A stretch of DNA of 61,399 nucleotides, filler included, from Sphacelaria rigidula (taxonomy: Eukaryota), in the NCBI GenBank assembly GCA_964200075.2. It is 9 parts of 9 records of this genome, joined end to end, with 100 filler letters (N's around TTAATTAATTAA, not from the genome) between each part and the next. Parts side by side here need not be neighbours in the genome. Positions count along the whole stretch, not along the records: positions 47,835 to 54,567 come from CAXNAA020018361.1; positions 54,668 to 61,399 come from CAXNAA020018362.1; 7 more parts are not named here. The stretch is one strand, 5' to 3'. The notes under the pieces were generated by a model. That model was not told where the DNA came from and did not search any database. It saw only the letters and a program-made list of their open reading frames with translations. The translations under genes and the position numbers were made by a program. Position 1 is the first letter of the stretch; every line of letters begins with the position of its first letter. Positions 6,735-61,399 of this stretch are shown here, piece by piece.

Positions 6735-6834
6735 NNNNNNNNNNNNNNNNNNNNNNNNNNNNNNNNNNNNNNNNNNNNTTAATTAATTAANNNNNNNNNN
6801 NNNNNNNNNNNNNNNNNNNNNNNNNNNNNNNNNN
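6735..6834. other. Artificial 100-bp spacer (first of eight)
   Basis: N44-TTAATTAATTAA-N44, with stops in all six frames. Identical spacers at 13569-13668, 20403-20502, 27236-27335, 34069-34168, 40902-41001, 47735-47834 and 54568-54667. Confidence 0.98.
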
Positions 6835-12203: not shown

Positions 12204-13689
12204 CCCAGAGACACCCGTGGTGTTGTCAACCTCGTTCTATTGCCAAAACTTTGATGTAAGTACGCCTTGGCCATGAATGCACCGCGTGATTGACGTTGCA
12301 TAGTATTTTGACTCGGCTGAAGTAATTAATGCAACACGCGGCATTTACCATCAGTACACGACTGTGCTGGCTGACGGTGAGGAATGAATGCAGAAACACC
12401 TTGCACCCCGTATCCTTTCGGCGCTGCTTGTTATGGGTGCGAAAAAAATCCCTGACACAACGCCTGGTTTCGCGATCCAGCTGATGTTCGCCGGAACACG
12501 CCGCTCGGCGGATAGTGCCACCTCGGAAAGACGGCTGTACTCCCCGAGAGGATTCTAGCGCACTTTGCCGTTGTTCCGTCCACCCAGTTCGACATTTAGC
12601 CTGACTAGCAATGACGCATACAACCTCGGTACAACCCACGAAACAAGTCCGAGTGATCCATGAAACACACCTACATCTTGGGAAACACGATATTTTCGGG
12701 GCTGTTCGAGAAATCGCTCGTCCGCTCAAAATCGTATGGAAGATATAGCGAAGATAGCAACGGTGCGCGAGAATCCGCTCTGAGAATACAGTAAAATCTC
12801 TCCGAGGTGGCACAACATGCTAATACGCGTGTTTCGGCGAAACTCGGTGCTGAATCGTCAAACCAGACATTTCGGGGGAGTACTCTGGTAGCCCAAGCGC
12901 CCTGAGACGCGAAGACATATGCGTGATCTCTTTTACTCGAGGAATGACGGGTGTTACCGCGATCGCTAGGCCCCTCCAAACCAGCCCCATAACATGCACG
13001 AAGAAAATGGTCATACAGCGCATGATAGCTAGTTTCAGACTGACTGCATGAAGTGCCTCTTATGGACGATAGTGGCAAAAACGATCCCAAGTGTGGGAGT
13101 TCCCGGCTGCTTTTGTCATTTTCTAATGCGCATGTAGATTTGCCTCCTCAGACCAGCCATTTTGCTAGGGGGGGCTATCGCAGCATTACTCCAACACTGC
13201 TATCTATATGTGCACTGATTACATGCAAATACATACATGTCGCCAGTGAATCATTGCTTTGCGTTCGTGCTACTAACAACAAGACCGTGGCAGAAGGACT
13301 AATGTCGCGATAGGCGCCACCAGGAAAGTGGCTGATTTGGGGGAGGCAAATCTACATTTGAAAAAAAAACGAGAAAAAGCCGAGTCCACCGAGCAGTTGG
13401 AAACGCCCACGCTTGGGATCGTTTTTGCAAATGCCATCCCCATGAGGCGCTTACTCATGAGGCAGTGTATATGACGTGGCTGTCTCAGCAAGTGGCGATA
13501 CCAGACAATAAAGCAACTCATCGTAGGCTGTCATCCAAATGTAAGATAATCGGTAGGCTTTGGGCCGANNNNNNNNNNNNNNNNNNNNNNNNNNNNNNNN
13601 NNNNNNNNNNNNTTAATTAATTAANNNNNNNNNNNNNNNNNNNNNNNNNNNNNNNNNNNNNNNNNNNNCCCCCCCCCCTATCGTAGGAT

Positions 13690-14276: not shown

Positions 14277-14343
14277 GGCGATCAGACGTTTTTCAACGCC
14301 CGTTTACGCCCTCGACCTCCAGTGCCCGGGAACCGATAAGCAT

Positions 14344-17062
14344 ATGGGAGGACCTCGCCCTCTACCATATGACGCCGTCTTGGGTGGGTTAAAGCCCACT
14401 ACCTCCGATTTTGTCGACTTTCGCACTTTCGGTGCTCGCGCGAAACTCTTCGCGGCGACACCTCCAGTCACTCACCTTATCTCCGACAACACGCGCTCCC
14501 GGTCTGCCGCCCGCACCACACCGAGTGCCCCGCCGCCACCAACAACACCTTTAACCTCTATCAGCCACCCAGCACAAGTTCCACGGACCAACACGCAAAG
14601 CTCCGCAAATCCTTCGGCACCGTGCGCCACGCGCCGCGAAACATCCTCGCCGCGCACTGATACAACCCCGCCGCCTATAATGGCGCCGCAAACATCTCCT
14701 GCCCCCGAGCACGGATCTGACGACTCGTCTCCAGCTCCCGGAACAGAAATTGATGTCGGCATTTCTGCCCCGTCGCCTAGTCCCCCGCCACCTGCCCTAC
14801 CATGTTTGGTCGGCTCGCCAGCAGAAGGTCAGCTAAGCGAGTTTCTCGCCAGCTACTCTCACCGCGATTGGGCTCGTGAACAACACGTAGAACAGCTATT
14901 TCGCGCAGCCATCCGGTACTTACAACTTGACTGTGCAGTCCCTTTTCCGTCCACACTTCTGGCCCCGGTTGGAACACTGCCACCACCAGTTATTTCTGAC
15001 GTATACGAGCTCGTGCGTAAAGGCACCCTTTATACTACGGATGAAGGCGTGCAACTACTCATCCGTCGGCCCACGCCCTTGACAGGCGCAATTGCCGCCC
15101 CAACTACGGGACGCACCGCACGACCACTCAATGACGAACCAGCGCGCATATATGTGCCATTATTAATGCGCCCCTGGGTCATGAAAGGCTGCCACACAGA
15201 CTTGTCATGCCACCTTGACGTCACCAGCATCCTCGCGCTCTTGGAACGCTTCTACTGGTGGGTTGGCATGGAAATCTCAACCCGCTTCTGGATTCGGCGA
15301 TGCTTCAAAATGCCAAGCCCGAAAAACCTCACGACAGACAGTAGTACGCTGGCCCGTGATCTCTATAGGACTCCTCGACGAGCCCGGTCACCTTGTATCC
15401 TTTGATCACTTCTGCCCTCTCCCGACCACAGGTCGCGGCAACACCTGTCGCTTACTCTTCACTGACCGCTTTAGCCGCCACGCGTCCATGTACGCGGTAA
15501 CCGCCGCAGATTTCACTGCCGCCGGAACGGCCGACATACTGGTCCATGATTACATTAAGCACTACGGCTGCCCGAAGCGACTACTTTCAGGCAATGGTCA
15601 GCAATTTTGTTCAGACCTCTCGGATGACCTTTACAAGCTCCTAGGCATCCGAAAAATTGCCACGAGCGCCCACCACCCGCACGGCAACGGCGGGACCGAA
15701 AGAGTTAATCACACCATGGCCCAGATGTTCTCTATGGTTGTCAATGACCGCCAAAATGACTGGGACCTACATCTCTCGCACATCATGTTGTCCTACAACA
15801 ACTCGGTTAATGCCGCCACAGGCCTTTCTCCGAACGAACTTCATCTTAGACGCTACCCTCGGTTGCCTATCACCGTGTTCGAGCGATACACGTTCGACGG
15901 TCACCAAGGATTGGATCAGGATCAGATATCCTACAACGAACTCGCACATGCACAACATCGCAAAGCGTTCACCTTCGTGCGCGAACAACACGCTATCAAT
16001 GCCTCGCTCCTGGAGAGATCTGACACTGCTCTCTACACCTTCATGCACAAACGCCCTACCTGGAAAGTTGGTGGTTGGGTTTGGATCTACAACAGCTTGT
16101 CGACCATCCGCCAAGGCACCAGCAAGGCAGCCAACGAAACAATGTTGAAAACAAAATTGTCCCTCAATTGGACAGGACCATTCAAGATCCTGACAGTCGG
16201 ACCTTCGTCATCATCACCGGATGAAAACCCCGTTGATGACAAACTGCTCTATCTCGACTTACCTCACGACTTCCAGGACAAAGACACCAAGCCCCACGTC
16301 TCCGTGAACAGATGCAAACCCTGCACGAACCCGCATGATACAAGCGACATGCCCAAGTACCTGCCGGCCGGACTCACACAGTATGTTCTCAACAGCTACT
16401 CGACCAAGTCCCCGCCCTACCACGTTACAACCGACGACGTGACGGAACAGCCCCTTCGGTTGGCTGTGTCCTCCATTTCCGGCCACCAGATAGCCCGTGG
16501 CCGAGCAGGCAAGATCGCTGTCATGTATAAGACACACTGGCATGGTCTTCGGAGAGCGTCTTGGGGACGCGAATCCGACCTTCAATTGCACCGTCGTGCA
16601 ATCCTCCTTCACTGGACGCAATTCAAACATCAGCATCTTACTCACAACAACAAGTATCGCAACATGCGCCGTGGCACAGCAGCCCGCGAACTTCCCCGCA
16701 ACCAGGGACTACGCTTTGTCGCCGATGATTACGAACTTGTATCCTCCAAGACTTGTAAGACGAAGTTCTTTGCGAACCAGCGACTCCTGCCCAAGGGCAG
16801 CTACCTTTGGTTCAAAGGCAGCGACAACCTCTGGTGGTTGGGTCAGACCCACTCCGCTAACTTGGTTTCGGCCGACACTTACATCGTGCGCTTCATCGAT
16901 GACCCTGGACCCGTACAGCTCAAGCTTCGGCCAACGCTATACAGCATCAGCTCATCTGCACCACGCGGATCCTGGTGTCTCCAGCGCCTCAAGTCCAAAG
17001 GACTTCGCCGCGGTCTCCAGCGCAACATCGATCACACCCACGACGCCCATGCCCCGCTTTGA
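14344..17062 (+). pseudogene. pol: Ty3/Gypsy integrase with a chromodomain-like C-terminus (frameshift near 15310)
   Basis: A Pro-rich linker, then the HHCC zinc finger (GCHTDLSCHL...RFYWWVGM...CFK/CQARK). The core is SFDH...LLSGNG...GTERVN, with the second catalytic D replaced by G. Then WTGPF and a chromo-like ISGHQ...YKTHWHG...SW..ESDL. Confidence 0.93.
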
Positions 17063-27235: not shown

Positions 27236-29264
27236 NNNNNNNNNNNNNNNNNNNNNNNNNNNNNNNNNNNNNNNNNNNNTTAATTAATTAANNNNNNNNN
27301 NNNNNNNNNNNNNNNNNNNNNNNNNNNNNNNNNNNAGCGAATCTGAAAAGCAGACTAGGCTCTCTCTGTGGGGTGATGCAAAGGAGGGCTTCAAAAAGTC
27401 GTCAGGCTCGGACTGCGCTCGCGCAGAGCAGAGCCGAAGGCGAAATGCGACCCCCCGCATGGGCCCCCCAGGAGGATCGCCGGAGGCCTCCCGGAGGACG
27501 CCGGCCGCAGAAATTTGGCCTTTTCCCTTTCAAAAGACCAAAAAATTGGCCTTTTCCCTTTGAAAGAGGTCGAAAACATAAAGTTCGCCTACGGCGAAAA
27601 AAGACCTCCATTTTTTTCTTCGCCGTAGGCGAAAGGTGCCGCATAGATTTTTTTCGCTTTCGGCGAAATGGCTGCGGCCCAAACTTTTGGGCTGCGGCAA
27701 GCCGCAGGTGAGCCCTCTGGGAGTCTGCGCGCAGCGCAGATTTTCCGAAATATCTACGCTGCTGCCGCAGCGCCGCAGGCACTTTTTGAAGCCCTGATGC
27801 AAGGTGTCCGAGACGTGTGTTGGCGATTTTCCCAGTTTGGGGGTCAAAGGGTGGGTCAAACGTCCCAAAAGTGCACAATCCGTCGGCCAGAAATATGTTT
27901 GCTGTAACATCCGGCCTAGAAGAATGACTGTGATTTCTTTCTTCTGATACATATTCGAAACCTCATTTCGACGGGCGGATTGGAAATTAAAAAATAACTG
28001 TTCCGAATACATACACAACTTTTTGGCGGAAGAATTAGTTACGGTTCAGCATTAGCAACAAAGATCGCAGTAACAACCGAAGAGATGGGATATTCGCCGT
28101 AAAATAATGAGTACTAAAGTCCATGCACTGTGCAGTAGCTCGTATACATAAATTTAGCACATTGTCAGAATAGTGGAGAACGTTTGGTACGTGGAGTCTA
28201 ACGTGCTGTCAACAGTTGTTTACATAAACGGTTTTATTGGCGTATCCGAGAGTTTTGTCGAGAGATTGACGTAGCCCCTCGCTGTTACTCTCCACAGCCA
28301 CCCACCTCCAGCAGGCTCACCAGCTTGTCATCAGTTTCCCGTATATAGAGTGGAGACTGATCGTCTTTGGTTCTGGATACGGCCGAGTAAAGCACCAAGG
28401 GAGGACCGTCTTATTTTCTCTACTGCACTAAGCAAGTGTTGAGTGTTTCACCAACACTGCATCCTCTGCGAGCTTTCTTGTTAGAGCTGTGTTCACGGGT
28501 TGAACTGCTGTTCTTGTCAAGTAAGGAGTTGAACACTGCTGTACTACGTTATTCACTACGTTTGAATGCAGACAAGCCATAGCTATGTTTCCAATAGACT
28601 CGCGAATACAGTCCGCAAGGAACCATGACAACGATTGAAATAAAATATCGTAGCAGGTGACGGTGGATACCACCCAGGGCGATAGATTTTTCAACCTAGA
28701 ATTTCTTATATTCTTATACATTACGGTGGCTACGCCCCCCGAGTACCGGGCCATTAGAAAGATCTTACGGCGCCGAAAGTATTCGGCAAATGGGGATATT
28801 TGACAGTAGGAGAAACACTTTAATAGAGGAAATTAATCTTCAAAAAAGCGTCGTCCGGGGGGGTTTCACGGTAGGAAGCCGAGATCGAAGACTTGATCGT
28901 TCGGCGGTGATACAAACTAGGTCACTCACCTTCGGTACATATTAAGAATTAAAAATCAACCCGACATGCGACAGTAGACGCATGGGCGTTTTTTTACTCG
29001 TAAGTTCATTGCTACAATATTAGAGCTCTACAAGTTTACAACGCAACGTGGCAACACAAGATGTCGAGTACTGACCACTCGTGAGCAACAAGACAGTAGC
29101 CACACAACAAGCAGGCTTTTGCGATCGTCCTATGGGTTGATCGCGATACATACAGATGGATAGATGAGTACTCGTAGAACTTCGGTTCTTCTTGCGCTTG
29201 CTACATAGATGCCGTGGGGGATGATATATAAGCCTGCCGCTTCGATACCCTAAGCCCTACCGAC

Positions 29265-29593
29265 CTTGTCGATGTCCGCCTCGAGCACCAGAGCAGTCGC
29301 CGCGAGTGATCCCGCTGAGCTCCCAATAACACTCTGGTCAGGGTGGACGTCATGCAGACGATGATCAAGAAGGCACTTCGCAACCCCGAAGTTATAGATC
29401 ATCAGCCATCCCCCCATAGCGAAGGAGAAATTGTACGCTGGCAACTCCTGTGGCGTGCTGGTGGTAAGGAAGGGCATTCTACGTCCGCTGCACGAGAATT
29501 CGAGCGGCACTGGTGCGGACCAGTCTAGTCGACGATCGAGAAGAGAGCTATCTTCTACGGTACTAATCGCACGCGGCTCAAACGCCAGCAGGG
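29265..29593 (-). CDS. Internal exon of a patatin-like phospholipase (PNPLA family)
   Basis: Branch-like ctgac, pyrimidine tract and cag acceptor; donor AAG|gtcggt. Encodes the oxyanion region FSFAMGGWLMIYNFGVAKCL and the nucleophile motif GSSAG. Confidence 0.88.
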
Positions 29594-29659
29594 CTGAGAA
29601 GATGCGAAAAAATTGAAAAAGTGGTACAAGGGTCAGACCTGAGCAGTGGTGGTGGACGA

Positions 29660-29850
29660 GTCGGACAAACAGACAGACGGACAGATGGGTGGATGGATAG
29701 ACAGAAGATAGAAGATAGATAAGACAGGCAAACAGACAGAAAGAGAGGCAGACAAACGGAAAGATAGACAGACGATAAAGACAGGCAGACGGACAGATAT
29801 ACAGACGGACGGACGGACAGATAGACAGACGGACAGACAGATAGACAGAT
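29660..29850. repeat. Compound tetranucleotide microsatellite (GACA/GATA/GACG)
   Basis: Directly visible repeats in the intron upstream of the patatin exon. Confidence 0.9.
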
Positions 29851-30385
29851 CGGCAGTGTACCACATAATAAGAGTAACACAGACCGGTTAAAGCTCATCA
29901 CCCTAAAACACTCATCGGCAAACCTCACGCCGTTTTGGGGAGTTTATACCCTGGAACTTTGCACAGATAACAAGGTTTTCGTAAGATAGAGAGTTGGGTG
30001 CGGATTGAGAGTGGCTTTGATCATTCGCATTAACTCGGCCAATTTTATATTCCGTGTGTGTTATTCTTCGTCTTATCACTGGCATGTGCTTATTACAGCT
30101 ACACGTTAATATCCTACTCAGGGATATCGAGGGCCTCAGTGGGAAGCTACTACAGAGAGAATATTGGGCCTGGTGGAGGTGCATTTCGGAACTGAGAGGG
30201 CTCATTCACTAATTGACCGCTTTTCACTCTCAATCACACCTGCAACTCTCAATTTCACGAAAACTTTTATGTTCTATGGGGCATTACGCAACAACTTTCG
30301 AAGGTGAGTATATGTTTTTATTATTCAGTTCTTCACCTTTTATCGGGGATCTCAGTTTTTCCGGGGAAACATCGATCCAACCGGA

Positions 30386-54508: not shown

Positions 54509-54977
54509 CTTAACCTCTCAAGGGTCGGACAAATAATGATTCATCTGGAAATTACTTGGTTTTAGTANNNNNNNNNNNNNNNNNNNNNNNNNNNNNNNNN
54601 NNNNNNNNNNNTTAATTAATTAANNNNNNNNNNNNNNNNNNNNNNNNNNNNNNNNNNNNNNNNNNNNCTGCTCTTCGGCTTCATGCACGAGAACGCAGCA
54701 CCACACTCATGCAAAAAACGACCGTCTGTGTACAGAACCGTTTCACAAATCTGTGATACTGTACCGTCTGTGCCATAAAATGGTCACCCCTAGGGTTGCT
54801 CATCAACTAAATAATCACGGGTGACTATGATTAAAAAGTTGATTTGTCTGTGTATCAACATCATGATTCATTGTTGATTCGTTGAATTTTTGGGGGAAAA
54901 GAGGAGGCGTTTGCGTTGTGTAACGCCGTGTAACGCCAATTTTTGCCTGCGGCGCAACTGTACCTATAGGCGTTGCA

Positions 54978-56227
54978 ATGGTAAATGTGGATTATATATC
55001 GGGTGGGAAGATGTTTCACGAGGTTGAACGTGGTGTCAGCTACATAGGTCGTATCGATCAGATGTCCTACTACATATCAGGTGTGCTGTTGGGGGACGTT
55101 CCTGTTGGTGACACTGTGTCCATAGTAGGTATAGGCAACACCGGCTGCATGGTTGCCAATGAAGTAAAGGAGAAGTTGAGCAACAGCGGTTGTGTTGTAA
55201 TGCGTGAGAGGACCGCGCGCTGAGAGGATCGCGCCGTAGTTCAAAACACCTCAGGATTGATGTTTTTCAAAACCAGTCGGGCCAGTCCCTGCAGGTACCA
55301 CGCCCCTGACCATAGCCCCAATACTAACCCTAACCCTAACCATGGGGATGTTCAAATTCCGATGCGGTCCCCTGAGCATGCGGTCCTCTCACGCATGACA
55401 GTGTCGTCAGGGTGTACGAGATGACACAGCCAACTGTTGGTGCTAGAAAGGGTGTCACGGATGAGGACATCACCTCTGGTCGTTTCACCATATTTGCCAA
55501 AGATGCTGTTAGGGTGAAGGTCAGGGATGACGCTATGAGGTCCCACATGCCGACCAAGGGTATCGGGGATCTATTAGAGCGGTACAACAACGTCCTCGCA
55601 TCCAGTAGTGTGATTATGACGTTGACCAGGGCTGCAGGTGATGATGTTGTAAAGGCAGCTAAGTCTCTGTCGTCTGCAAATGATGGGACCAGCGCACAAC
55701 CGGCAACAATGGAGAACCTACAGCGTGACATTGCAAAGCTGGCCAAGTGCATCTCCACGTTAGCCAAGAGTAGCATGGATGCAGGTGTTGGTGTACCGTT
55801 GGCATCTGGTACCGCAGCATACGCCGGTGCTTTCACCAGTGCTGTAGGATCAGGCAACCAGGTACCACAGTACTTTGTTTTTCCGGGCATGGGTGGTAAG
55901 GTTGGAAGTGGCAAGATTGGAGGTGTATCATCGGACAGTGGTTCGGTTGTCAGCAAGGAGGAGAGAGCCCTGGTTGAAAGTTTGACATCTGGAGCATCAC
56001 TACCATCTAAACCGAGTGCGCCAACTCCTATCAACACTAGTACCCCTGGTCCTGTAATGAAGCGTGGAGTCAAGGTGTACCTCGCGGTTCAAACTTCATC
56101 TGCTGCATCCGAGCGTGTGTTCTCCGTAGGCGGACTCATGGTCACGAAGACCCGAAACCGCCTTAGTGGGGACCGGGTGGAAGACATAGTCTTCCTCCAC
56201 GAAAGCATGAAACATGATCTCTGGTAG
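54978..56227 (+). pseudogene. MITE-interrupted 346-aa ORF ending in the hAT C-terminal dimerisation domain
   Basis: Joining 55195 to 55405 fuses ORFs 54978 and 55412 in frame. The C-terminus YLAVQTSSAASERVFSVGG...TRNRLSGDRVEDIVFL is the hATC motif; no DDE core is visible. Confidence 0.8.
55196..55400 (-). mobile_element. Nested MITE with TGT...ACA termini, 4-bp TSD GTGT and internal (CCCTAA)n
   Basis: tgtaatgcgtgagaggaccgc / gcggtcctctcacgcatgaca; gtgt at 55192-55195 and 55401-55404; ctaaccctaaccctaacc at 55324-55341. Homologous to 1090-1327. Confidence 0.88.
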
Positions 56228-59225
56228 AAATCAAACCGCTACGCTGGTGGAGATTGCTGCTGGGCTCTGGAACATGGACTTTTCTGTTCACGACGCACTG
56301 ATTACAGGGGATCGGACTTGAAAGAAATATTACACTCATTGCATATTATTAGCACATCATCACTTGCAGCAGCACACTGGATTTGCATGTTGGAATACGA
56401 GTGGTTTTCATAAATGCATAGATGTCTAATGGGCATGTGCGTATGTGGTGGGAGTGTGGTAGTAGGTGTACTCCTGCGCACTGCGCACGTACGGACCCAC
56501 GATTTGACACTTCGGCATTTACTTTGAGGTAGAAAAGTGGTACACCACACAGGCACGAGAACCCGATACATGCAGCCTTCTTGATGTTGCAAACATGTTG
56601 CTTCAGGCAAACAGCACACGAAGTACAACACAACGACCGGAGACAGACAAATCGCGTGATGCCCATGCAGCTGGGATATTGAACCGAACACTGCTGCTCT
56701 GAGCGTGCGCACGCGTGGGTGTGCGCGGTGAATGCTATCTACCGAAGGATCAGCTCCTGTGGCTTGTCCGCTGTTCAAAAGCTTGAAAAATACTCAACAA
56801 TCAATGATAAGTTGATTCAATTCCCGTGGAGTTGGTTGTTTGATTATAATCAAACAATCATGATTATATCCACACGATTTGGACGAAACAATCAAGAGTC
56901 AAATCAACCCGCCCAAAAGTTGATGAGCAACCCTAGTCACCCCGATTTTGAGTACACGAATTTGAGTCCCCCCGATTTTCCCCCCGATTTTGAAAAAATC
57001 GGGGTGCAAAAAAATCGGGATTCGTTCGCCATAAAAGTGGGTCTTAATGCAGTGTTACGCCGGGGGACTTGTTATTTTATTTTATAGTCTTTTAAACACC
57101 TCCGCGAAAAACAGTGAAAAACGGTGGATGATGGCCAATGTCTTGATTTGATGAGGGTGGTCCGCACCAGCTGTGCATGCAGCAACGGCCCAGACAGCAT
57201 CGCCCGGGCGGAGGGAGTATGCGCGTGGAGGACTAAGGTATGCTGATATATACATAGGCAAGACCTTTGGCAGATTGCAATGACAACAATGCTCTTTGCC
57301 GAGAGTTATAGCAGAATCCGTCCTGCCCCGCGTGAACACCCCCCCCCCCCCTGCGAAACCTGACCTCCGGTGTCATGGGAGAGCACTGCGCTCGCGTAAC
57401 ACCACCGGCAGAGACACAGAAAACTGTTTGAGCATCTGCACAAAGCAGAAATTCCATTGCAAAAGGATTTACTGATATCCATTCATGTAGCAGGTGAAAC
57501 GAGTTGACTAAAGTTTGAAAAGTTTGAATTTTTATCCGCACCAGCACACGGGTCCTGCAGAGAGCCGCCTTTCCGTCGTACAAGCTGTTATACCCAGTAC
57601 AGCATAGCCCCGGGCAGTACAATACCATGCACCCCAGCGCAGCACAGAACAACACAACTGCATGCAACAAAGTGCAGTGCAGCACAGAGTATTGTACTAT
57701 CTGCGTTGTGTTCTGCGCGGCGGGTATAAACTGAGCCGGCTGGCAGAAGAAACACCGTGTACAGTACCACTTTAGTACGTAGATGGCGGTCGTGACCTTG
57801 CCGTCAAGATTCACGACGTTGCCAGATGCGGCCCTGGGGAACGTGTACTTCGGGGGGTCGTGTGCTCGATGGAGAAAGGTACCACACGCGCTTGGTGCCA
57901 TTTGAGGCGCAATGATCGCATGTTGGGAACGTGCGCCCGGGCTCCAACGACCACCAATGTGGAGGAAGATCATCGGAGTGTACACAGCGCGGGAGGTGTC
58001 AAGAAACTCGTATTTAGAGCAAGGCTCGGCGTCTTCTTTTCTCTCCGAATCCAGCAGAAATGCTGAAATCCATTTTTTTGTTCGACGCGGTGGAAAACGC
58101 CGAATGCCTCAGTTTCACATTATTATTCTGCACAGGCATAGGAATAGCAGGCATCCAAGGTACCTCCCTACTCTTATCCTCTGCCGAACGGGATTGCAGG
58201 ATCAGTACTATACCGTGCGCTAGCGGGTAAGCAAGCAGTACGTAAATCACTCTTATTCCTTGAAAATCGGAGCATAATACAGTACAGTGTTATAGGAGTG
58301 TGGTACATATCGCCATTATCCGTGGGGTATCCCAGTAGAGATCAGTGTTGTCTGCCAGTTCAAGAGAGGAGGCAGCTTCGCCGGGGGGGTTATGCAGCCA
58401 TGGCGGTTGTAAAGGCAGGCTCTTATTATCCTGAGGCGCAGTTCATTGTTGCAGATTTTTACCTGCCGACCCCCTTGCACTTTCCAACTTTTAACTCTTA
58501 TGCTCCCCTTGAGATCACCACGAATGCTTCCCAGTAAGTTCTTGAATTCACCAAAAAAATCGAGCCTGCGATTATTAGCTACGAAATATCTAAGATCGGT
58601 CGCTCCTGTAATCGTACATATATTTCGAGTTGGGAATTTGGACGTTACAACAATACGATACGATGATCGGATGCGGTGACCATGACAGATGATGATGCAG
58701 CAAGGAAAACTCCATTGTCGTTGGACCTCGCAGCACGAGAACCGCAATGTTGGAGGCACCTGGAATCAAAAGCATTGATGTGCAATCCTACCCCACCCAC
58801 CCACCGGTTCATTCGCTGACCGTAGATGCGGAAGATCCCCAAGACTCACACTTTGAATGCTACGTCTGGAGCACTTCTCAGACGCCAGTGGCGGCAGTCC
58901 GAACGTGAGATACGGCATCGCAATCGATCTCAAGGTAAGGGCACCACAACGCACTTGATGCAGCAATACTGCGGGAAGAGTAAGCGCTGAAGATCGCGGG
59001 CACCTTACTATATTACACTCGTTCCCGCTGATGATTGTGTGTCTTGAACGGAATTGAGTATGCATACATTTCGGAATGACATCCTGTCCCATGAACCCGC
59101 GACTCCTACGCTCGAAAAAAAAAGACCACACGGCTATCACGTTGTGCTGATTTATCGTTATTCCGTATCCTCCGGAGAGGTTGTGAAGTGCCTGCGCCAT
59201 TCCCAGCGCCATCCCCTCCAACATA

Positions 59226-59885
59226 GTGGTGTGCTTGTCAAGCCACGCGTACGTGGATACATCCGGGAATGTGCAAACCGTTCGATGTGCTTGCAAGCCA
59301 GAAAGGGCGGCGCAGAGACGTCATCGGTGCCAGGGATGCAGGTGTTTGGGGAACTGCACTCTGAGCTGCGGTTGCCAGGGCCGATGCATGTTGCCCCCTC
59401 CCACTTCCCCGGCGACAGACGCGACGTCCACTGATAATACCGCCGCAGTAAACATCGGTGCACGGGGCCGACGTCATAACGGGAGGGGTGGATCGACGGC
59501 GAACCGTGGAAGAGGCGGGTCAGCGGGGAAGCATGGCAGGGGCGGGTCCGCCGCGAGCGATGGAAGGGACGGGTCAGCGGCATTGCGTCCTACGGGCGAG
59601 GTGAATGGAGCGAGAAAAGCGCCAGGGGAAGGTGTAAATAATGGTCATGGTGTGGCGTCGTTCTGGCGCGACAGCGGGAGGGTGATGGGACAGGGATTGG
59701 ATCCGGAAATAGATCATACCCGTCGTAATTGCAGCGAAGATGAAGGAGATGGACCCTCACAGGGCGAGTCGAAGTATTCAGCGGGGATTTGGATTGGAGA
59801 TTCTGATTCCGAGTGCAGCGGGTCGGAAGGAAATGATTCTGTATCGGAAGCGGGCAAACACCACGACGAGGATGTCACGTTTTGA
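59226..59885 (+). CDS. Possible terminal coding segment with a CXC-like 9-Cys cluster, RGG repeats and an acidic tail (possibly transposon-derived or decayed)
   Basis: CACKPERAAQRRHRCQGCRCLGNCTLSCGCQGRC, then GRGGS repeats and a D/E/S-rich tail. The 5' boundary is unclear. Confidence 0.45.
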   Translation: MVCLSSHAYVDTSGNVQTVRCACKPERAAQRRHRCQGCRCLGNCTLSCGCQGRCMLPPPTSPATDATSTDNTAAVNIGARGRRHNGRGGSTANRGRGGSAGKHGRGGSAASDGRDGSAALRPTGEVNGARKAPGEGVNNGHGVASFWRDSGRVMGQGLDPEIDHTRRNCSEDEGDGPSQGESKYSAGIWIGDSDSECSGSEGNDSVSEAGKHHDEDVTF

Positions 59886-60652
59886 TCTAACCTGCAGAGA
59901 AAGTTAAAGACATGTATCGTATAGATGGATTGCGCAGGTATATATGTAACCGCGGCTGTTGTTGTCTCCTCTGGATATTGAGAGGCCGTTCCTTGCGTTG
60001 ATGGGAAATGTGTGCTGTGGTTAATGTGGTGCGCCCTTGCGTGCACATCAATACGGCGAGTAGTCCGGCGATGCCCTTGGGCGAATCGCCGGTTGAAAGT
60101 GAAGACAAGCATTGATAGTAATGAAACGACTCAGAAAACATAATCAGGGTGGAAGAAATGGCCTTGAATCTAACGTCTTGGATTACTGTGCGACCCGGCA
60201 CCGCACGTGCATCGCCTCGAGGAGTTGGGCTGTGTCCAATTTCGTTCTGCACAGCGGGCGAACCGCCAGGCATCGTTGGTACCACCGATCGCAGTCGATA
60301 ATCAAATTGGGGAAGGAGTTTTTCAATGAGGATGACTACCGGGAAAGAGCAAATGGTGTTATCTATACCACTTCTTCGAGCCCGTATTGCATTTGTTTAT
60401 GTACTGGCAGCCATTGGCCACAACTGCATGTCAAACGATTGTGGATGCGGAGCACCGAAACTTTGAGGTCCAAGGTGCAACGGCGATGTTGGGGAATGAA
60501 GGCGATCTTTTTGTATCACGTAGGTTACCCACATATATTCCAATTTTCAATTTTTCAATTTTTCAAATTGGTTGTTGTCTCAGGCTATTCCAGATTCGGC
60601 TTTGAATTTCTGTGATAAAAAACACTCTCGTTTTTTTTCGGAGTACTTTTCA

Positions 60653-60721
60653 AAAAACGAGCAGAACTTCTTGAAAAACGAGCAGAACTTCTTGAAAAAC
60701 GAGCAGAACTTATTGAAAAAC
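60653..60721. repeat. 21-bp tandem repeat, about 3.3 copies
   Basis: aaaaacgagcagaacttcttg repeated. Confidence 0.9.
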
Positions 60722-61399
60722 TACTCGAACCATGACGCCGTTATATGGAATACAGGGCAGTATATTCAAAACAAACTACTTTTGCAGTGGTGTATGGAGA
60801 ACAGACTACTACACTCAACACCAGACAACACGGCAGTACGCAGTGTTTTTTAGTTTCAGGATCTGAACACGGACCCTCTGTGTGTGCGACCCCGGCTGTT
60901 GCGCCCACATATACCAAAATGTCTAGACCGGCGTCCAGAAAAGATGAGACGACAACACACACACGCACAGTGTACATATAAATGCCGCACAGTAGACAGC
61001 AGACAACTTGTAGTCTGCCGATGTGTGTGGGGGGTGCTGCTCTATTGCAGCGGAAGCTTCGAGGCGAGAATACCACCATCAAAACCAAGAACAAAGGAAA
61101 GAGGCAGATGCCCGCAACAGCAGCGGCCCAAAGTGGAGATGATTGACGAATACCGGAAACGGAGCGCACACTACTAACGGCCCGAAGCGGAAGGAGATCG
61201 TTGATCGGGGATGGGGATGGGGTTATGGGCAGAGGCGATCGGCTGCGTACATTTAGTCGGAGTGAGCCGCACCCCGCATGGTCTTACTCTGTAACGTTCA
61301 TGGTCTATCGTGCTTTCGTCGTTCGGATGAGATATCAGCCCGTACATGTTGATATATCATGCTTTTCTTCGTTACATTGCAGTTTTGAGCACGTGTTCT

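Follow-up and report, generated by a model that had tools for sequence, protein, structure and literature searches.

A transposase-less hAT element of Sphacelaria rigidula in which a rare open reading frame is fused to the tail of the lost transposase

The stretch of DNA analysed here, called the window throughout, comprises 61,399 bases of the Sphacelaria rigidula assembly GCA_964200075.2 and contains at positions 54791-56935 a hAT-type transposable element of 2145 bp. Within this element an open reading frame (ORF) that belongs to a very rare protein family continues in frame into the last codons of a hAT transposase gene, and is itself interrupted by a miniature inverted-repeat transposable element (MITE). 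The window consists of nine pieces, each of ca. 6.73 kb, joined by N44-TTAATTAATTAA-N44 spacers; the eight spacers lie ca. 6834 bases apart (6735-6834, 13569-13668, and so on to 54568-54667). The true context of the hAT element is therefore 54668-61399 only, and arguments from neighbourhood across a spacer are invalid. The window sequence is eukaryotic in character. Contigs from the public sequencing runs X1, X2, X6 and X8 were compared with the window (the runs that contain this stretch carry the label 'algae metagenome' or a coded 'organism A'), and their depth was not taken as copy number.

A window-wide motif search located TAGGGTTGCTCATCAAC exactly at 54791-54807 and its reverse complement at 56919-56935. 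With a third site that has 3 mismatches the total comes to 3 matches, against 0.13 expected, and 0 of 100 shuffles reached 3; this third site (58774-58790) is without a partner and was taken as chance. The repeat arms extend to 54790-54808 and 56918-56936 with 100% complementarity, and since the outermost pair is part of the target-site duplication, the inverted repeat proper is 18 nt long. The perfect terminal repeat, which we take to resemble the end of Ac, begins with TAGGG and fits the hAT rule of a G at positions 3 and 5. In PMC6027215, G is described as frequent at these two positions of hAT terminal inverted repeats. On both sides the element is flanked by an 8-bp duplication, GTCACCCC. 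Contigs that represent the empty site join 54782 to 56936, skipping 2153 bases with 8 letters common to both sides; they were found in X1 (n=11), X2 (n=11), X6 (n=2) and X8 (n=1), and each holds GTCACCCC once. The single octamer in the empty-site contigs shows that the element inserted in one copy of an abundant repeat and thereby duplicated 8 bp, as hATs do. An earlier reading made from the sequence only had proposed a recent hAT insertion with perfect terminal repeats and a target-site duplication, which is borne out by the exact arms, the duplication and the empty-site contigs. Thousands of X1 and X2 contigs match the host repeat around the element. This very abundant repeat also holds the inverted motifs CCCCGATTTT and AAAATCGGGG.

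The outer parts of the element are rich in short repeats. The outer 150 nt of the two ends contain 11 of the 15 TTGAT/ATCAA sites (4 in the first and 7 in the last 150 nt), and ATCAAC with its complement occurs 7 times in the two 200-nt ends versus once in the 1745-nt interior. By analogy, these TTGAT/ATCAA(C) repeats match the place and style of subterminal transposase-binding repeats, which in the case of Ac are given as AAACGG (PMC3260210). The ORFs of the 3' region (56228-56917) are without any Pfam family. A 22-nt inverted match with 86% complementarity connects this untranslated region (56349-56370) to the cargo part of the ORF (55631-55652) and may be due to chance.

Removal of the MITE and one GTGT joins 54978-55195 to 55405-56227 and gives an ORF of 1041 nt, i.e. 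346 codons and a stop; at this base composition, the chance of 346 stop-free codons is ca. 2e-8. The protein encoded by the first piece (P0001) is 51% identical to residues 1-67 of a database protein of 452 amino acids, P0010 (E 7e-20), with the common start MVN.DY (MVNIDYLSGGK in P0010). The protein of the second piece (P0002, cargo and tail) aligns from its first residue to residues 73-285 of P0010 (BLASTP, E 3e-19). Both pieces are thus colinear with P0010 without gap or overlap, which shows that the join is correct and that no residues were lost. The 1041-nt repaired ORF that the sequence-only reading had put forward accordingly stands, being colinear with an independent protein. On the minus strand, a frame of 250 codons without any Pfam family is open antisense to the cargo (55339-56088) and probably arises as a side effect of coding on the sense strand.

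The only Pfam match of the ORF is to hATC (Dimer_Tnp_hAT, PF05699; E 1.2e-8, 35 bits with a cutoff of 21.4). It involves residues 217-268 of P0002 and covers positions 32-83 of the 84 profile positions. Sequence comparison showed that residues 226-274 of P0002 are 94% identical to residues 111-159 of the relative P0003 over 49 residues, starting from YLAVQ (base 56078). Six database proteins resemble the ORF by this tail alone, with a query coverage of 11-21%, and PF05699 is found in 6/6. A profile of hATC relatives matches the window protein only at profile positions 184-235 of 236. Upstream of the junction, the first half of the domain is of the usual type in the relatives (G-G-x-L-x-W-W-A-K-A ... 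Y-P-H-I-A ... L-A-R-K), whereas the window protein has unrelated low-complexity sequence. In agreement with this border, X8 record 31 fits the window from 56077 onward only, its first 118 letters being unlike the window. Because the similarity begins exactly at 56078, all that is left of the parental gene are its 49 final codons with the stop codon, and the 3' region. No Pfam family for a BED finger or a DDE core was found in any ORF of the 2145-bp element, and the first half of hATC is absent. The element therefore does not have the BED finger, the DDE/RNase-H-like core with insertion domain and the complete hATC of an autonomous hAT, nor, with no BED finger and half an hATC, the intact DNA-binding or dimerisation domain of a truncated-transposase inhibitor. 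The ca. 52 amino acids of hATC noted earlier, without visible BED finger or DDE core, were confirmed by Pfam; identity with a transposase is confined to the last 49 residues. The retained S-E-R-x-F-S block presumably holds the third catalytic residue (E572 in Hermes), not the whole dimer interface.

Table 1. Features of the hAT element and its host repeat, with positions in the window
Feature	Position	Strand	Evidence
Host repeat, left part	54668..54782		Abundant contigs; joints 54782->56936
Left target-site duplication GTCACCCC	54783..54790		Sequence; single copy in empty-site contigs
Left terminal inverted repeat TAGGGTTGCTCATCAACT	54791..54808	+	100% complementary to 56918-56935
5' subterminal region with TTGAT/ATCAA(C) repeats and short leader to ATG	54809..54977	+	Repeat counts
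ORF part 1, 72 codons and 2 bases, holds GIGNTG	54978..55195	+	Translation; 51% identical to P0010 1-67
Nested MITE, 205 bp, very high-copy family	55196..55400		Inverted arms, hairpin fold, contig borders
ORF part 2, cargo: conserved region, helix with conserved Cys (MENLQRDIAKLAKCISTL), low-complexity linker	55405..56077	+	Translation, HMMER, BLASTP
Last 49 hAT transposase codons (C-terminal half of hATC) and stop	56078..56227	+	Pfam, identity to P0003
3' untranslated and subterminal region with TTGAT/ATCAA repeats	56228..56917	+	Repeat counts
Right terminal inverted repeat	56918..56935	-	Complementarity to left arm
Right target-site duplication GTCACCCC	56936..56943		Sequence; empty-site contigs
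Host repeat, right part	56944..57243		Contig coverage and joints

The cargo part of the ORF belongs to a protein family of its own. A HMMER search with the residues encoded by 55403-56062 gave 2 matches among 1,835,955,588 representative proteins, namely P0009 (159 amino acids, E 2.8e-13) and P0010 (E 1.6e-11, query residues 1-215 against protein residues 73-298). P0010 is without any Pfam family, hATC included, and the profile of hATC relatives did not report it even at E <= 100 with filters off; the cargo family therefore exists apart from the transposase tail. Conservation is confined to the first ca. 215-290 residues, beyond which both proteins are of low complexity, and P0010 continues for ca. 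150 residues at the place where the window switches to the transposase tail. No sequence relative of the cargo was found in PDB (best E 0.88), and nothing below E 0.05 was found in PHROG. A metagenome search with P0002 gave 158 pattern matches, of which tblastn confirmed 0, and the conserved peptide YIGR[IV]DQMSY, searched for as a degenerate DNA pattern, was found in 0 metagenome contigs and 0 viral contigs. A word-based search for longer proteins yielded 0 of 7999 candidates, and a search with P0010 returned no protein other than P0010 itself among 8000 candidates. The four protein clusters that were looked up have one member each, and there is no second cargo copy within the 61-kb window. 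An AlphaFold2 model of P0010, based on a 4-row alignment that included the window pieces, is poor (predicted local distance difference test, pLDDT, 42.3; predicted template modelling score, pTM, 0.25). It consists of four N-terminal strands, a helix and a strand, followed by long helices at 106-204. The stretch that had been described as heptad-like corresponds to the last of these long helices, and its Cys is kept in all three proteins.

Most of the ORF and of the 3' region is covered by X1 and X2 contigs with an identity of ca. 97% to the window; over 55956-56047 there is a single contig per run. Record 12 of X2 covers 55700-56106 with 14 differences in 407 letters and thus passes from the cargo into the tail, a strong indication that the cargo-tail fusion exists in other copies, too. 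For a substitution test we used the best-supported differences (258 further ones were found). Among these, 19 lie between 54972 and 56188, and one located before the ATG was excluded. The remaining 18 best-supported ORF differences comprise 10 synonymous and 8 nonsynonymous changes, whereas random placement in the ORF predicts 4.97 synonymous changes for mutations of these types (P 0.009). Of the 8 such differences in the conserved region (to 55870), 7 are synonymous versus 1.84 expected (P 9e-5, with the split chosen after seeing the data). In the low-complexity linker 2 of 8 are synonymous, and the tail has 2 changes, one synonymous and one not, which are too few to judge. Indels among the best-supported differences comprise one in the ORF, an in-frame insertion of 6 nt following 55560 and shared by all contigs at this place, and four in the 3' region (1, 5, 1 and 5 nt), all out of frame. 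From the synonymous bias and the in-frame indel it follows that the ORF appears to have evolved under protein-coding constraint during the divergence of the copies, and until recently would have worked as a gene. The antisense frame shares wobble positions with the ORF, and the coding strand is thus identified by the homologues, not by this test taken alone. Loss of the open frame in other copies, which would have spoken against the first interpretation of the ORF, was not observed among the best-supported differences: their single ORF indel is 6 nt long and in frame, and the substitutions lean towards synonymous changes. Contigs of X6 and X8, with a depth of 3-4, match portions of the ORF and of the 3' region; these runs are RNA by guess only, and the contigs do not show transcription.

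In the present copy the ORF is disrupted by the nested MITE. Its arms of 63 nt are 71% complementary, with one mismatch in the outer 21 nt (TGTAATGCGTGAGAGGACCGC), and it is flanked by GTGT at 55192-55195 and 55401-55404, an apparent 4-bp duplication. The hairpin fold has a z value of -4.85. Contigs of other MITE copies diverge from the window at 55196 (102 in X1, 91 in X2) and at 55400 (83 in X1, 78 in X2), which marks the borders of the element. Its interior includes a short CCCTAA-type run, and 6-nt unit indels occur between copies. The MITE splits the 346-codon ORF after codon 72, and the frame runs to a TGA inside the MITE, so the present copy can encode only a stub of 81 residues. Removal of the MITE as an intron was rejected on a hand check, which found no GT...AG pair around it that removes a length of 2 mod 3. 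A MITE-free joint (55195->55405) is not among the 15 joints examined (113 further ones were found). Record 17 of X6 fits 55028-55191 and then continues with 35 letters unlike the window; it could represent a MITE-free copy or another junction. A diverged second copy of the MITE is located at ca. 1099-1327 on the minus strand, flanked by ACGA and ACGG.

We consider it likely that the element is a non-autonomous hAT of the maize Ds2 or Pack-hAT kind which carries an orphan passenger ORF, and that the present copy is dead. An autonomous hAT parent would have lost nearly all of its transposase gene and kept both ends, which comprise the inverted and the subterminal TTGAT/ATCAA(C) repeats as well as the 49 final codons, their stop and the 3' region. 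The lost part would have been replaced by an intronless ORF of a rare orphan family; this ORF begins with its own ATG, 187 nt in from the end, and continues in frame into the tail. This may have happened through filler DNA acquired during repair of an excision break. Transposase from autonomous relatives in the same genome would move the element in trans and make the 8-bp duplications; the present copy landed inside the high-copy repeat, and its ORF is split by the 205-bp MITE. The transposase tail would be a leftover that supplies a stop codon and a 3' end, not a working dimerisation module. The cargo protein is most likely encoded by a passenger gene that was still expressed and under constraint in the recent past. 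The earlier proposal of captured or foreign sequence fused in frame to a hAT tail holds in that the first ca. 290 residues are not recognisable as transposase and belong to a separate protein family. Its other half, capture, is something we infer, as no donor gene outside an element and no full-length autonomous parent were obtained; these missing partners and the empty metagenome and viral scans weigh against the proposed origin. The same can be said of the ATG, which is only 187 nt from the end, as expected of the element's own gene and a coincidence for random capture; of the poor structural model of the cargo (pLDDT 42.3); of the substitution test, which uses 18 best-supported differences with 258 further ones beside them; and of X2 record 12, which runs 29 letters beyond the cargo/tail junction and thereby stays under the 31-letter bridging rule.

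An extended version of the passenger interpretation holds that the orphan ORF is a gene which lives only on its hAT vehicle, is under purifying selection and perhaps aids or regulates the element via the transposase-derived tail, so that it would correspond, in an alga, to the case of Ds2-18 in maize; we regard this as a tentative and rather unlikely possibility. According to a rival explanation, which the sequence-only reading had given as its alternative, the element would be a deletion derivative of the Ds-del type: the first ca. 290 residues would be the ordinary N-terminal exon of this lineage's own transposase, one deletion would join them to the last 49 codons, and nothing would have been captured. 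The start of the ORF, 187 nt inside the left end, is where one expects a transposase gene to begin. As the relatives P0003-P0005 resemble terminal exons alone, the parental genes probably contain introns, with first exons predicted as separate proteins; P0010 might represent such an exon, extended by translation of the adjoining intron. A search of a protein atlas with residues 1-215 of P0002 gave only sub-threshold leads, with a weak one (score 0.86, 96 shared features) to hAT-like RNase-H clusters. That score, however, lies in a range reached by a third of shuffled proteins, and residues 1-215 of P0010 gave no usable match. Neither the 346 residues of the ORF nor the 452 of P0010, which has 2 Cys, contain a BED finger or zinc-finger pattern. 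Moreover, tails of 66-94% identity were found in 4 clusters, but no cargo relative above 39% in the same databases, which would be surprising for two parts of a single gene. We therefore consider a deletion derivative distinctly unlikely.

Two further explanations assign a function to one or the other half of the fusion. In a regulatory fusion the cargo-hATC protein would bind the autonomous transposase via its hATC remnant, poison or tune transposition, and be selected for this effect. The in-frame join, the constraint seen in the best-supported differences and the 94% identity of the tail to that of the likely parent (P0003) would fit such a role, and a region matching Ac 669-751 is described as involved in dimerisation (PMC6027215, citing Essers et al. 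2000). However, ca. 49 of the ca. 84 domain positions are left and the first half, with the W-W...Y-P helix of the relatives, is gone. An in-frame join has a chance of 1 in 3, the constraint is located in the cargo domain (7 of 8 synonymous, versus 2 changes in total in the tail), and in this copy the ORF is cut by the MITE after codon 72. Judged from these sequence features, a regulatory fusion seems improbable, and the earlier idea of a dominant-negative protein with an oligomerisation module appears weakened. The other explanation, which goes back to the Rossmann-like GxGxxG motif pointed out in the sequence-only reading, is that the cargo is a captured fragment of a dinucleotide-binding Rossmann-fold enzyme. 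Indeed, V-S-I-V-G-I-G-N-T-G ... V-V-R-V-Y-E spans the MITE join in the window, a strand-helix-strand unit is predicted at the matching place of P0010, and the final acidic residue is kept (VRVYE/VRVHE). The glycines, however, are not conserved: GIGNTG corresponds to PVGVPA in P0010, the only relative that covers the motif. No Pfam model, Rossmann families included, matches P0001, the 99-aa ORF or P0002 at E <= 1 except hATC, and no PDB sequence match was better than E 0.88. In the low-confidence model of P0010, three strands precede the beta-alpha-beta unit and only long helices follow it, which is not the alternating beta/alpha sheet that, together with a conserved GxGxxG/A loop, defines NAD(P)/FAD-binding Rossmann proteins. 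GIGNTG would thus be a chance resemblance to a Rossmann loop, the capture of such an enzyme fragment is highly improbable, and the cargo protein is most likely not a dinucleotide-binding enzyme.

The non-autonomous hAT with a passenger ORF is a known kind of element, a transposase-less hAT with a rare gene fused to the tail of the lost transposase. Membership of the hAT superfamily follows from the 8-bp duplication, the short terminal repeats and the hAT transposase-derived sequence (PF05699). According to the description of maize Ds2 elements in PMC3260210, these keep Ac ends and carry filler DNA that was suggested to stem from errors in excision-break repair. The Sphacelaria element shares with them the perfect short inverted repeats, the 8-bp duplication, and ends with subterminal repeats together with some retained parental interior; many Ds2-like elements, as described there, also sit in repetitive DNA with nested insertions. 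Its organisation is of the Ds2 type, with subterminal repeats, parental similarity only from 56078 and an interior of another family, an assignment based on the 3' side. The closest precedent for the replacement of the interior by unrelated DNA is Ds2-18, which carries a complete hypothetical ORF of which all copies are described as transposon-borne (Du et al. 2011, PMC3260210). Unlike in maize Ds2, the host is Sphacelaria, the frame of the passenger ORF continues into the last 49 transposase codons, and there is a synonymous bias between copies.

Coding DNA between hAT ends is also known from Pack-TYPE or Pack-TIR (terminal inverted repeat) elements. Pack-hATs were reported in maize (Gisby and Catoni 2022, PMC8903248), and 208 hAT-associated Pack-TIRs were counted in 100 animal genomes (Tan et al. 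2021, PMC8277862). The element described here likewise lies between TIRs, is non-autonomous for want of a working transposase, and contains coding DNA. As these sources present them, what defines a Pack element is a parent gene that can be traced in the host, and most contain gene fragments with introns. The present element is thus Pack-like by its coding cargo, whereas strict membership would require such a parent gene. Unlike Pack elements, it holds an intronless ORF with its own ATG that spans nearly the whole conserved part of its family. In the descriptions cited, gene-carrying hATs are rare in maize (PMC3260210) and catalogued mostly in plants and animals (PMC8903248, PMC8277862). Ds-del derivatives and truncated-transposase repressors form a further group for comparison. 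In these, as in the present case, the shortened element still contains part of the transposase frame together with the stop codon; the KP element of P is a truncated-transposase repressor. Unlike in Ds-del derivatives and repressors, only the last 49 residues are kept here, without a DNA-binding or complete dimerisation domain, and the rest is not recognisable as transposase.

Other pieces of the window contain further coding sequences. At 14278-17059 (+), ORFs of 375 and 625 amino acids encode a retrotransposon-type integrase, with matches to the integrase zinc-binding domain (PF17921, E 7.8e-7) and, below threshold, to the integrase core (PF00665, E 2e-4, 22 bits with a cutoff of 32.6). An ORF of 214 amino acids at 29253-29894 (-) has a weak, sub-threshold patatin-like match (PF01734, E 1.4e-4, 22.6 bits with a cutoff of 27.7).

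The finding corrects an attractive but wrong motif-based assignment to the Rossmann fold. It also shows a hAT element with almost the entire conserved region of a protein family that is very rare, beginning at the start codon of the family itself, in copies whose differences are biased toward synonymous changes. This leads one to ask whether a cut-and-paste element of small size is able to maintain a functional passenger gene. If all copies of the gene are transposon-borne and intact copies are expressed, the element would provide a clean system for testing the roles of passenger genes; otherwise it would be an ordinary relic of the Ds2-like kind.

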